From Mustelus asterias (Eukaryota), in contig NW_027590275.1 in the NCBI RefSeq assembly GCF_964213995.1, positions 310,001 to 374,000 on the forward strand: DNA of 64,000 nt. Direction: 5' to 3'. Below are positions 50,942 to 58,474 of this stretch, piece by piece. The notes below the pieces were generated by a model, which saw nothing but the letters and a program-made list of their open reading frames with translations, had not been told where the DNA came from and made no database searches. The stretch's first letter is position 1. The number at the start of each line of letters is the position of its first letter. A program made the position numbers and the translations under genes.

Positions 50942-51109
50942 TCAATAATGTGCACAGGGCGAACTACGGATTGATAAAGCAAAGCGAGAAACAGCTCTAC
51001 TGTGAATAGCAGTGCAGTGTCTCTGACGGTTAAACAGATCACCCTTTTACAGATAAAATGAGTGGCTCTGAAAAGAGCCTTTGGGTTATCAGATTAAAGA
51101 ATGGCCGCT

Positions 51110-51559
<450 letters not shown>

Positions 51560-52824
51560 TTATAGCTCCGGGAGGAATGGAGGTGTGGACATTGCTGATT
51601 GGTCACTTTGTTGCTGCCTCTCAGCATCTTGTTCATATGACCAATCAGAAATCTGCTTAACTCACCAATCCGGAGAGCCCACGGAGTGAGGGCGGAAAAT
51701 AACGGCGCCAAAATCTCAGATTCCAACCGATTTCATTTCAAACTGTAAAAGCCGCCAAAGCGGAAAGAACAAGAGTTTCGGAAATTATTCTAATCGGTAA
51801 TGGTGAATTCATTTTGAGTAATGTAAGAATCTCCCTTTCTCTCTTCCCCAGTCTATAGTTAACCTGTATCTGGCAGTCTCTGATTTTCAGTCTGGGTTTA
51901 TCTGAAAACAAGCCGAAAATAAATTATTCAAATTTGGAAACTTCGCAGATATATTTCTCAAACAAGAAATACGGTTAATAACAAATCCCATCAATAATTA
52001 ACTATCTATCAACAACGTTTTTAAAACATCAGTCTATGTTTGCACAATTTCACGTTTTATCCCAAGTTGCAGATTTGCTTTTCGAATGCGGGATACATTC
52101 GGGGTTAATCTCTTTCTTTTTCAAACTCTCGAACCAGCCGCCAGAAAGTTTCATTGACATCGTTCTGCAAACGGACGGGCTGTTCTCCATCTTCGTCGAG
52201 ACTGAGGGTTCCTGCACAACCGGGGCTTATCGGGAATAAACTGATCGGTCATTGAGACCAAACTGGAAACTGAGGAGTTTGCACTTTTTCCCCCCGATTC
52301 CGCGTGGTTTTCCTGCGGGCACTCCGCTTTCTTCCCACAGCCCAAAGGTATGCGGGTTGGGTGGATTGGCTATGCTAAATTGCCCCAGTATGAGGGGGAT
52401 TAACAGGGTAAATATTTAGGGTTACGAGGATGGGTGAGGGATTGTTGTCGGTGCAAACTCGATGGGCCAAATGGCCCCCTGTACTGCAGGGATTCGATGA
52501 TTCTGACACATTTGCTCCATTACCTCGCTCTCTCTCTAAAGCCTGGAAAAGGGACCGAATATCAACGCGTCTGAGATCTAAACCCAGAGAGGGTGAGGAA
52601 CCAGTTAATTAATTTTAAATATTACTCAGACCCAATGATCCACGGGGCGATTGACTCCGTGTCTATCATTGATAACCAGAAAAACAACAATTATCATTGT
52701 TCGAGACGCTGCGTCGTAAAATAATAATTGAAACTAAATGGATGATACAGCCTTTTCCCAGGGATTGTGGGTGGCTCTTAAAACAGCCGTTGTGTTTGGG
52801 TGCTTTTCAGTCCATTGGGGAGTT

Positions 52825-53202
52825 TTACTTGGAGCTGGTGTACTTGGTCACCGCCTTTGTCCCTTCCGACACGGCGTGCTTGGCCAGTTCCCCGGGCAGC
52901 AGCAGGCGCACGGCGGTCTGGATCTCCCGGGAGCTGATGGTGCTGCGCTTGTTGTAATGGGCCAGGCGGGAAGCCTCACGCGCGATGCGCTCGAAAATAT
53001 CGTTCACGAACGAGTTCATGATGCTCATGGCCTTGGAGGAGATGCCGGTGTCAGGGTGAACCTGCTTCATCACTTTGTAGACGTAGATGGAGTAACTCTC
53101 CTTCCTGGATCTTTTCCTCTTCTTGCCGCCCTTTGCTGGCAGCTTTTTCTGCGTTTTTTTAGCGCCCTTCTTGGCAACCGGCGCTTTCTTCTCATCCACC
53201 AT
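52825..53202 (-). CDS. H2B: Histone H2B, 125 aa, intact ORF but probably impaired
   Basis: H2B fold with G75R; stem-loop mismatch GGCTGTTTTAAGAGCC at 52773-52788; promoter interrupted. Confidence 0.9.
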
Positions 53203-53365
53203 TGTCACAGTTAATTTCAGACACAGAATCACTGAGTCGCGCTCGGAACTCCTCTTTTAAAGCCTGGAAAAGGGACCGAATATCAACGCTTCTGAGATCT
53301 AAACCCAGAGAGGGTGAGGAACCAGTTAATTAATTTTAAATATTACTCAGACCCAATGATCCACG

Positions 53366-53703
53366 GGGCGGCACGGTAGCACAGTGGTTAGCACTGCTGC
53401 TTCACAGCTCCAGGGTCCCGGGTTCGATTCCCGGCTCGGGTCACTGTCTGTGTGGAGTTTGCACATTCTCCTCGTGTCTGCGTGGGTTTCCTCCGGGTGC
53501 TCCGGTTTCCTCCCACAGTCCAAAGATGTGCGGGTTAGGTTGATTGGCCAGGTTAAAAATTGCCCCTTAGAGTCCTGGGATGCATAGGTTAGAGGGATTA
53601 GCGGGTAAATATGTGGGGGTAGGGCCTGGGTGGGATTGTGGTCGGTGCAGACTCGATGGGCCGAATGGCCTCCTTCTGCACTGTAGGGTTTCTATGTTTC
53701 TAT
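53366..53703 (+). mobile_element. Full-length young HE1-type V-SINE
   Basis: GGGCGGCACGGTAGCACAGTGG head to (TTTCTATG)n tail; almost identical to 58137-58474. Confidence 0.95.
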
Positions 53704-54294
53704 AGACCAAAGCAGAGGCCTATGCTAATGAAGCATGGCTGAAAGCCCTGTTCCTCATTGGCTCATTCACAGTGATGTCAATTCGTGATGCTGTCTCTGA
53801 TTGGTTAGTTTAGACACCCAAACACATTGGTTGCTGCACAAATCCACAAACTGTCTGTTGTCAATCCGTCCTTTCCCCTTGTCCGCCCCGATCCACCCAA
53901 CCCCCTGACCCTCTCACTCCCTCTCCCGCACCAGCGCATTCTCTCTGCTGCTAATCCCACATCACTCTATCAGACTGCTGATACTGTTCATACATTTCCC
54001 CTTCCTCACCAGCACCAACTGCTCTGCTTTACTTCCGCCCATCACCGGGAGCTGGCAGTGCAGAATATCTGGGCTCAGACAGGGGTTAATGCGAGCTCTG
54101 CTGTGCGTGTTAAAAGGGAATATGTTTGATAAGCAGCAGCCACAAGTCCCACATGTGACACTAACATTGTGGCTAAAACAGAAAAGTGACTGAAAGAAGG
54201 ACTGGAATGAGAGTTGGACATTACTGGCTGCAAGGTGTTCAGGGACGATTAGTCAAACAATCCCGGAGGGTGATTTACTGTTCAAAGCAACTAT

Positions 54295-54628
54295 TCGGCC
54301 TTTTGGCTAAGATCAAGTGTAGTATGGTCGGCAGCCCATGGTCGGCCGCACTTGGTCGAGGTCATTAGGTTACACTGAAGCTTCATATGTTTCATATGAA
54401 GCAATTTTTAAAAGCGGCATCTCGGCCTTTTGGCTAAGATGCAAATGAGCTCAAGTCTTGGCGGAGGAACCTCCCCCTCCTCCAATCAGCTTGGCTCATG
54501 TAGATCAGGCCCAGGACAGGGTGGTTTGGTCGCTCGCCCTGTCTTGTCAGCCTGGATCTGAAATGTCTCAACTTGTTGAGACTCTGAATTGGATTTGATT
54601 TGATTGAATTGGAAAAGTATAAAAAAAA
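54295..54628 (+). mobile_element. U2 snRNA-headed short retroposon
   Basis: U2 nt 9-39 at 54295-54325, second U2 motif 54420-54440, A8 tail, TSD AACTATT at 54289-54295 and 54627-54633. Confidence 0.8.
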
Positions 54629-56792
54629 CTATTAGAGTGCTGGGGGGATGACATTGAGGGATCAAACAGAATCTATTTGGTACCAGTTATGGAACAATGC
54701 GAGAGCGATTCCACAACAGGATACACACATTCTATTTCAAACTGCTTGTCTGTCAGCCATGTCTGAGTGGGTTTCATGCTGTGTCGATTTGTATCTGATA
54801 TTTCTATGTTGCTTCGATCTCTGTCAGTGGTCGGTGATGTTAAGATTTAATTCAGAAAATGCAATCTCTGATATATGTCCGTGTGTTTTATTTTCTCTAT
54901 AACATTCAGTATTTAAGAGAGTGTGGGCTTTACAGTATGTTGGATCTGGGATGTTATTCTCTATTTCATTTGGCACCTGTTGGTTTCTGAAATGGAAAAT
55001 CTTGCGATTTTTTTCTAGCTGCGCTTCTCAGTTTTGGATTTGTTTGTGTTATTTCACTGCACACTTTAATTTCTGCCATGTGAGTAAGTTTTTAATCTAT
55101 GCATAACAGTCTTTGGTATAAGTGTGTTGGTATTTTCCCAAACATGCTGTTCTATTATTTGGAGTGTGTCTCTACCACTAATTCTCAAGGTCGCAGTTAT
55201 GTGTGATGTTACAGTTCCCATTGAGGTTGATATTGCCCAGTGACCATCTGAAAGGGTCACATGACAAAGGTTCACAACTTGTACTGTAACAAATTAAAGT
55301 CAACACTAACCAACGAATCAACATTTGCCCCTTAGCGTCATGGGATTGAAGGATAAATACATAGGGTTCCGGGGAAAGGGCCTGGGTGGGACTGTGGTCA
55401 GTGCAGGCTCGATGGGCCGAATGGCCTCCTTCTGTACTGTATGGATTCTATGAAACGTCACTTAGTCGCTAATGCACTAAATAGAGATGAGACACCATCC
55501 TGCCTACCGTGACTATTAACTTATGCATGTTCTTTATTCAACATCTAGTACACTCTGCTAGCGATGTGTGGATTGTTTATAAGTTCCTGAAACATAAATA
55601 TGGATTTCAGTCTGTGCCAGTCATTTTCTGCTTTATTACAACGGGCTTTATTCTGTCCCTCTCTGTTTCTGGCCTGGAAGGATTTCAAGTAGGTCCTGCT
55701 GTCGGTGTGTGGTAGGTCTGCGTGTCTTTACGCAGAATCTGTTAATTGTTGCAATGTGAGTATTATTTTTCCTGTCAGTGTGAGGAAGATGTGGGTTGTA
55801 CTCTGTAGCTGCTGTATTTTATGAGTAGCAGTGTTTTATGCTGTTCTTGTCAATTTGCTGATTGCAAATACAGTATTCTGTTTCCTACCTCTAGTTTCTT
55901 TGCTTCTATGTTAGGTGACAACAAATCCAGGAAACATGACCTGAGGTGAGGAGAAAGGGGAGGAGAAATTTCTTCACCCAGATCTTGGTCAATCTGTGGA
56001 GTAAATTTGAGATAGCTCTTTGGACTCAAGGGATCAAGGGATATGGGGGGAAGGCGGGAACAGGATATTGATCTTGATGATCAGCCACAATCAAAACGAA
56101 TGTTGGAGCAGGCTCCAAGGGCCAAATGACCTATTCTTGCTTGTATCTTCTATGTTTCTATTTTTAACAGTTCCTGATGGTCTGATGAAAGTGAAATCAG
56201 GTTCAGCAAACCTGTTGGAGATCTGAGGATGCAACTAACTGAATAGATCAGGAGTAACCAGCTGTTGTGGTATATTTACATTTTCAGAAATCCTTTGATA
56301 AGTTTCCACACAAGAGGTTAATAAACACAATCAGAACACATGGTGAATACTGCCCTGGATTGAGAACTGGTTAAAGGACAGAAAACAGAGGATAGATATA
56401 AATAGGTCATATCAAGTTAGCAGACAATGACAAGTAGGGTACAACAAGGATCAGTGCTTGGGCCCCAACATTCACAATCTATATCAATCTTTGGAGAATG
56501 CACAAAATAAGCTGGAAGTGTGAGTTGTGAAGAGGAGGCAAAAACTCCTCAAGGGGATTTGAAGTGGCTAAGAGAGTGGGCAACAATTTTGCAGATGGAA
56601 TGCAATGTGCAGAGTATTCCTGAAATGATGAGGGGCTTGAAAGTGTTGAAATTCAAAAGCACTTGACTGTTCCTGTTCATGAGTCACAGAAAACTAATCT
56701 GCAGCTAGAACAAGCAATTAAGAAGGAAAATGGAATGTAAGCCTTTATTGCAAGATGTTTTGAATACGGGGTAAAGATGTTTTACTGCACTA

Positions 56793-57808: not shown

Positions 57809-58136
57809 AGAGTATTCCATAATTATATAGTCTTGCTGAGACAGCAGCTAGACTATTGTGTGCAGTATTGTTCTCCTTACCAAAAGAAAGATATGATTGC
57901 CATAAAGGGAGTGGAATGAAGGTTTACGAAATGAATTTCTTGGTTGGAGGGATTGTTGGATGAGTAAAAACGAGAAACACCAGGTGTTTATTTTCTGGCA
58001 TTTAAAAGAATGAGAGTTGCTGACATTCAAGCATACAACAATCTTACAGGGCTCAATAGGGTAGAAGCAGGAAGTATGCTTTCCCTGGCTGGTGTGTTTG
58101 GAACCAAAGGATACAGCTCATTTAGGACTGAGATGT

Positions 58137-58474
58137 AGAAATCATAGAAACCCTACAGTGCAGAAGGAGGCCATTTGGCCCATCGAGTCTGCACCGACCA
58201 CAATCCCACCCAGGCCCTACCCCCACATATTTACCCGCTAATCCCTCTAACCTATGCATCCCAAGACTCTAAGGGGCAATTTTTAACCTGGCCAATCAAC
58301 CTAACCCGCACATCTTTGGACTGTGGGAGGAAACCGGAGCACCCGGAGGAAACCCACGCAGACACGAGGAGAATGTGCAAACTCCACACAGACAGTGACC
58401 CGAGCCGGGAATCGAACCCGGGACCCTGGAGCTGTGAAGCAGCAGTGCTAACCACTGTGCTACCGTGCCGCCCC
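58137..58474 (-). mobile_element. Full-length young HE1-type V-SINE
   Basis: Reverse complement of 53366-53703. Confidence 0.95.

Follow-up and report, generated by a model that had tools for sequence, protein, structure and literature searches.

Positions 54295-54628 of the 64,000-nucleotide stretch analysed here (the window) hold a member of a ~334-nt family of retroposons headed by the 5' end of U2 snRNA; this copy is slightly clipped at its own 5' end. From its sequence, the family is likely a SINEU-type parasite of a Keno-type LINE and is likely transcribed from the U2 promoter. An initial annotation of the window had offered a non-autonomous U2-targeting element and an independent SINEU family as alternatives. 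Copies lie within U2 genes at the Keno site, and the family is multi-copy, U2-headed and of SINEU type; both descriptions hold, and the evidence supports regarding them as one and the same thing. The features of the window copy are given in the table.

Features of the window copy (positions in the window)
Feature	Position	Strand	Basis
5' target site duplication (TSD), 7 bp, final base also U2 nt 9	54289..54295	+	sequence; empty paralogous sites
U2 snRNA head, nt 9-39 (family head nt 1-39; clipped here)	54295..54325	+	100% match to the genome's own U2 genes; starts of other copies
Subfamily-specific loop with small hairpin; marker of the window's young subfamily	54326..54347	+	fold; subfamily comparison; 534 exact junction matches
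Anti-head strand, 20 pairs (7 G-U) with U2 nt 11-34, extending to nt 36 in older subfamilies	54348..54375	+	fold, alignment
Hairpin 2, 10 bp in the window copy, shorter in older subfamilies	54380..54402	+	fold; subfamily comparison
C-A-A-T5 tract, mostly single-stranded, identical in 39/39 aligned copies	54402..54409	+	alignment
Second U2 piece, nt 7-27 at 54420-54440; U2 stem-loop I fold plus 3-bp extension	54417..54442	+	U2 comparison, fold
Hairpin 3, C/UCA 1x3 internal loop and variable apical loop	54445..54499	+	fold; subfamily comparison
Hairpin 4, C/UCA internal loop and base stem as in hairpin 3 (repeated module)	54500..54560	+	fold; subfamily comparison
Hairpin 5, 7 bp	54565..54582	+	fold
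Conserved 3' end, last bases AAAGTAT like the Keno 3' end; no AATAAA	54583..54620	+	subfamily and Keno comparison
A8 tail	54621..54628	+	sequence
3' TSD, overlaps last two A's of the tail	54627..54633	+	sequence; empty sites

The exact U2 nt 9-39 head, the A8 tail and the 7-bp TSD had all been read correctly in the initial annotation. The 7-mer of the TSD is present once at each of three paralogous empty sites, which confirms its length. The head start at nt 9 is correct for this copy, but the family head comprises nt 1-39. Likewise, a body beyond the head is real, but it is not entirely foreign to U2, as had been supposed, because a second U2 piece lies within it. A search for this piece gave two matches against 0.02 expected, and it is likely an older head. 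The C-A-A-T5 tract resembles an Sm site, except that no G follows the U run, and it is also a Pol III stop. The C/UCA loop and base stem common to hairpins 3 and 4 form a candidate protein-binding module; the module was looked for in Keno and not found there. An Rfam scan over the element returned a sub-threshold U2 match, a chance SNORD94 match and nothing else, with no ribozyme family at E up to 1, which leaves room for an undescribed ribozyme. Identity as a U2 snRNA gene or variant was rejected on a U2 covariance-model score of 29.1 bits against a cut-off of 46.

The family is large, and the body is not single-copy: a 22-mer from the 3' part has 4,898 exact matches genome-wide, which sets a count of at least that many copies. 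The exact head/body junction of the window copy is matched 534 times genome-wide, and reversed controls gave 0 for both queries. A body-only query gave 40 full-length matches at 98-100% identity (40 of the 2,059 candidates were scored), and the U2 head was present in 30 of 30 fetched loci found by the body alone. For the analysis of ends, 111 distinct copies were taken from 96 loci, and 105 were used after two duplicates of the window site (L004, L024) and four copies without a 3' end had been dropped; one false promoter flag (L022) was discarded before counting. Of these 105 copies, all with a complete 3' end, the 5' end falls at U2 nt 1 in 27 and within nt 1-2 in 37. Copies chosen by a 3' motif alone (n=33) begin at U2 nt 1-15 in 24 cases and are truncated further in in nine. 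An automatic scan found a TSD of at least 6 bp in 59 of the 105 copies, and 39 of those 59 are 13-19 bp long. The window's subfamily is young, with a median distance of 1.2% from column majorities over 53 copies, a figure that selection biases low. Other subfamilies are 79-95% identical to it, and apical loops have been exchanged between subfamilies with the stems retained.

Dispersed target sites display only a weak base preference and a weak consensus. The element is seen to favour U2 genes and existing copies of itself as targets: 26 of the 105 insertions, and 9 of 33 in a less biased set, lie in or just before another copy or U2 sequence. Tandem runs of two or three copies with a TSD between them were observed at L013, L019, L022, L091, L101 and L114, the 5' copy often being nearest to the young subfamily, and copies inserted in either orientation in another copy's head or loop were observed at L057, L058, L072, L086 and L112. 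Sixteen of the 23 sequencing runs matched contain at least 0.27 of the element's words (eight coded organisms, eight studies), which is a lead only to the element in other species. None of the runs listed as containing it is an RNA run, which carries no weight as to expression.

In copies residing in U2 genes, the upstream flank is followed by U2 nt 1-39, the body, an A tail and U2 from nt 39 onward. An A tail stands directly before U2 nt 38-58 at 29 exact sites, of which 21 belong to Keno, six to the element and two to other sequences; one amplified unit accounts for 15 of the 21 tailed Keno sites. A second U2 gene type (175 bits, ~90% identical to the main type, 448-bp period) lies at G000:C21:28.045-28.082 Mb (L171-L175), where heavy invasion by both Keno and the element was observed. 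Its upstream flank was followed at 15 loci and leads into the element at nine (two of them duplicates), into Keno at two and into intact U2 at four. In the main array, an exact search for the element right behind the upstream flank gave 0 matches; reading the array revealed one such copy, degraded in its middle, which a variant base had hidden from the search. Both U2 gene types carry a motif similar to the 3' box consensus. The octamer is absent from the upstream flank of the second type and, for the main type, absent within 400 bp, and a comparison of the second-type flank with U1 and main-type U2 gave a PSE-like similarity of marginal strength (15, 68 and 11 of 500 shuffles). At G000:C24:43.04-43.06 Mb (L176, L177, L082), 4 of the 12 U2 units in the array exceed the others by ~16 bp. 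In the single longer unit that was read, a tandem repeat of U2 nt ~19-37 eliminates the Keno site. The longer units are possibly insertion scars or target-resistant U2 alleles.

U2-gene material was also found inside the TSDs of dispersed copies. L157 and L169 carry U2 pieces and the U2 upstream flank within their own TSDs, L168 has the same layout with no TSD seen, and L047 and L186 carry downstream U2 within theirs, the tail of L186 being a variant. These insertions point to RNA templates made from U2 arrays. The U2-resident copies are likely the sources of dispersed copies, and the arrangement with source copies under the U2 promoter and Keno as partner is one that we hold to be probable. 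At L186 ~1450-1560 (G000:C17:61.75 Mb, minus strand) the insertion is 5'-truncated, consists of a diverged element tail and downstream U2, has a 13-bp TSD, and may belong to an older sister family.

The main rival accepts the same family and the Keno partner but derives most copies from dispersed source loci that are read through from unrelated Pol II promoters. Their U2 5' ends would be supplied or refreshed when the template jumps to U2 snRNA, a process put forward for SINEU in crocodilians. The window's own subfamily has no member among the U2-resident copies found, so that its source would be unassembled, lost or outside U2 genes, which suits this reading. So do a head nearly identical to U2 beside diverging loops, the additional U2 pieces 5' of some copies, and the repeated 5' additions documented in the accessible text of Kojima 2015 (PMC4494074). 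However, non-U2 head variants are common to several subfamilies, which indicates that head and body are inherited together. The junction is also fixed, and no shared 5' extension was seen other than U2-gene flanks. We consider read-through from dispersed sources unlikely.

The partner LINE is 5.6 kb long in a U2 array (L043 1086-6733), where U2 sequence resumes at nt 38/39 after its A tail. It encodes an APE-type endonuclease and a reverse transcriptase (PF03372, PF00078, PF13966) and an ORF1 with a zinc knuckle. Keno is described in the accessible parts of PMC4640811 and PMC4494074 as a U2-targeting member of the Tx1 clade with an APE endonuclease, and the first of these gives U2 nt 39 as the insertion site of Utopia and Keno. 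The domains and the nt 39 flank of the LINE match these features, and on that sequence evidence we assign it to the Keno type. Keno is relaxed in this genome: it has 316 exact 3' motifs, and 0 of the first 30 sampled lie at the U2 site. The element lies within 1.5 kb of 8 of 30 Keno 3' ends, often directly adjacent, against an expectation of 0.4-1.6% that assumes 5,000-20,000 copies. At L021, a piece of Keno ORF2 is fused to the 3' part of the element inside one TSD, which fits a template switch between Keno and element RNAs. The common site, the co-location and this chimera give strong circumstantial support to mobilisation of the element by a Tx1-clade LINE.

A match of the body to Keno UTRs, raised in the initial annotation, was not borne out. 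Beyond the last ~7-10 nt, which the two share, there is no match longer than 11 nt (best E 0.31). A body derived from a Keno UTR, or from Keno by a SIDE-like deletion, was ruled out because the common sequence is confined to these terminal bases. The first ~20 nt of Keno (5' UTR) also pair back on the U2 head in a clear local helix, within a 115-nt fold-back region that is unexceptional overall (z -1.31). An 8,035-bp unit of intact U2 and broken Keno is repeated at least 15 times at G000:C24:44.82-44.93 Mb (L043, L193-L207), so that a dead LINE has been amplified together with the U2 array; its Keno is broken by a SINE in ORF2, a stop and a deletion.

It is quite improbable that a different LINE (Utopia, another Tx1 family or L1) mobilises the element and that the link to Keno reflects a common liking for U2-like sites. 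The lack of 3' UTR homology between element and Keno would be explained, and Utopia has the same U2 site according to the accessible text of PMC4640811. However, no LINE but Keno was found at the 29 tailed U2 sites, a pattern that requires an A tail, and Utopia in particular was absent from them; the Keno-element chimera, the tandem neighbours and the common terminal motif also speak for Keno.

The predicted fold of the 345-nt stretch has an energy of -146.6 kcal/mol (z -9.21), with 0 of 100 shuffles as good, and every hairpin named in the initial annotation is within this minimum free energy structure. The pairing proposed there between 54348-54357 and the head is also present, with U2 nt 25-34 as partner (10 bp, 2 G-U), and is part of a longer helix of 20 pairs that reaches 54375. 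Conservation was assessed in 39 copies, namely the window copy and 38 others under 95.5% identity. Nine local helices have 95.6% of cells paired versus 31-42% in slid controls, a comparison that is inflated because the tested structure was derived from the window copy itself. Variants common to at least three copies occupy 38 of 148 paired versus 53 of 112 unpaired columns. Pairing is retained by 19 of 26 shared pair variants and broken by seven, and in the head helix it is retained by all six. Columns of hairpin 5 were excluded from the conservation count, as many copies had been selected on them, and the counts are not independent because the copies are related. Long-range pairs proposed by RNAalifold between the U-tract region and the 3' end were not adopted, as their columns hardly vary.

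The suggested co-evolution of head and body holds in a one-sided form. In the head helix, none of the 20 pairs varies on both sides and 16 vary on just one; the U2 strand is nearly invariant, and it is the body strand that changes, by way of G-U wobbles. Two-sided covariation, to which the initial annotation had looked for support, comprised three pairs across the structure and was equalled by 153 of 500 shuffles, so strict covariation is not significant. G-U pairs make up 7 of the 20 pairs in the head helix versus 6 of 71 elsewhere (p 0.007). The predicted energy of this helix is -37.7 kcal/mol in sense RNA, -17.9 in antisense RNA and -9.1 in cDNA, and in a full-length copy it is ~11 kcal/mol better than a fold forced to retain U2 stem-loop I. 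This pattern of variation supports the modelled fold-back of the body over the U2 head.

Clustered sense-strand A>G changes were seen in 3 of 53 young copies (L112:952-1283, L079, L062), at 14:1, 7:0 and 6:0 versus T>C. Private A>G and T>C changes stand at 25:17 with the strongest copy omitted (p 0.03). These changes are consistent with, and likely reflect, ADAR editing of a double-stranded RNA template, fixed by reverse transcription. No Pol III A or B box was found in the element with the consensus patterns, and T4, T5 and T4 runs are present; Pol III transcription was rejected on these grounds.

Conserved structure, the invariant U-rich tract, a second U2 stem-loop I and residence in U2 genes could also describe a host-useful snRNA-like RNA, either a U2 decoy or a variant snRNP, with the dispersed copies as its retropseudogenes. 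We regard this as very improbable. Its Rfam U2 score falls short of the cut-off, there are many successive subfamilies, and the resident copies, which arose by insertion at the Keno site and disrupt U2 genes, vary among themselves and have not been amplified as an array. A chimera formed once, by a template switch between U2 and an unrelated repeat, of the kind suggested by the U2-fragment retrocopies discussed in the accessible text of PMC4494074, is excluded for practical purposes by the number of identical junctions, the head at every locus found by the body alone and the head-body pairing retained across subfamilies.

With source copies under the U2 promoter and Keno as partner, the following cycle may be proposed. 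The U2 promoter (Pol II) would start the element RNA at U2 nt 1, so that full-length dispersed copies would begin there and an internal promoter would be unnecessary. The body is predicted to fold back on U2 nt 11-36 in place of U2 stem-loop I and to hide some of the branch-point-recognition sequence, so that the chimeric RNA would not behave as a faulty U2. Keno ORF2 would prime reverse transcription at the A tail of the element. The G-U-rich helix would open in the cDNA, whose end would be free to anneal to U2 target DNA. Given the relaxed specificity of Keno, most copies would be dispersed, with TSDs mostly of 13-19 bp, and the few that return to U2 genes would renew the sources.

A further model, which we offer tentatively and consider rather doubtful, treats the element as a counterfeit snRNA. 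Its sources would hijack both the U2 promoter and the 3' box, and its RNA would enter the snRNP pathway with the head masked by the anti-U2 strand. The RNA would be capped and exported, would acquire an Sm ring, either at its own U-tract or at the U2 half that lies downstream, and would be re-imported; this route would bring it to Keno proteins and then back to the nucleus. The anti-U2 strand, which Keno would also have evolved, would prevent poisoning of splicing, and the G-U pairs would free the cDNA end for homologous joining to U2 genes. If true, this model would explain the transcription of all snRNA-headed SINEs, and the class would not be confined to crocodilians.

The element has the features of the SINEU class: a U2-derived head (nt 1-39), a length under 500 bp, no coding capacity, poly(A), TSDs, a true family, and internal oligo-T without Pol III boxes. 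SINEU-1, -2 and -3 are, in the accessible text of Kojima 2015 (PMC4494074), known only in crocodilians, target Mariner-N4 through Tx1-Mar and have their transcription left open. By that text they resemble the element in the U2 head, the length under 500 bp, the A tail, oligo-T without Pol III boxes, the presence of several U2-derived pieces and the occurrence of tandem insertions around the TSD. Their partner is a Tx1-clade LINE with no common 3' UTR, as the element's probable partner is too. The element differs from them in having copies inside U2 genes at the Keno site, a 5' end at U2 nt 1 and a body that folds on its head; the likeness concerns class features. The same text of PMC4494074 describes no RNA structure for SINEU-1, -2 or -3, and the accessible parts of the later PMC5381603 and PMC5786205 add no further SINEU lineage.

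With Keno the element shares the 3' junction at U2 nt 39, a U2 5' piece as head, the last ~7-10 nt and a 5' part that pairs back on the U2 head. Unlike Keno, it encodes nothing, and it is not a deletion derivative of it. R2 and the SIDEs of R2 and R1 offer a further parallel. Like the element, SIDEs are short and non-autonomous and live in a multicopy RNA gene; they are co-transcribed with the host gene and use the machinery of a site-specific LINE (accessible text of PMC3414825). SIDEs are described there as fusions of LINE 5' and 3' ends with a self-cleaving ribozyme, in rRNA genes. The element, in contrast, has neither a LINE-derived body nor a detectable ribozyme, retains a host RNA 5' end as its head and has spread genome-wide. 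Membership among SIDEs was rejected on both the Keno comparison and the ribozyme search. Utopia uses the same U2 site, but is autonomous and has a restriction-like endonuclease (PMC4640811, accessible text).

No description of a U2-headed SINE outside crocodilians was found in the open literature, the repeat databases (Repbase, Dfam) and subscription journals being beyond reach; the element may already be named in such a database. Its novelty is real, in a class (SINEU) already known from crocodilians. With it, the range of snRNA-headed SINEs would include a second vertebrate lineage, and Keno would gain a non-autonomous passenger, none being described in the accessible text of the literature examined. 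It would also suggest that an element targeting U2 has to refold the 5' end of U2 that it captures. Relative to the accessible text of PMC4494074, the new observations are the U2-gene copies behind the upstream flank, the sharp boundary at nt 1, the transduced flanks and a U2-targeting partner. Together these offer an answer to a question left open in print, how SINEUs come to be transcribed, and make that question directly testable.

The window itself is a histone cluster, with an H2A ORF at 51110-51544 and an H2B ORF at 52825-53232, both on the minus strand, within a region spanning 51040-53232 and beyond. Six histone 3' stem-loops above the cut-off and three tRNA-like matches were also observed. 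The element lies ~1.1 kb upstream of H2B and is polymorphic for presence or absence among paralogous units. The insertion has been duplicated along with the histone cluster: counting the window itself, its flanks recur at 5 of 30 loci. Young copies that have empty paralogous sites can also serve as insertion markers. Copies of an abundant tRNA-type SINE, presumably HE1-like, which agrees with the label 'shark' in the initial annotation, flank the element at 53366-53717, 55300-55453 and 58136-58473, and another interrupts Keno in L043.
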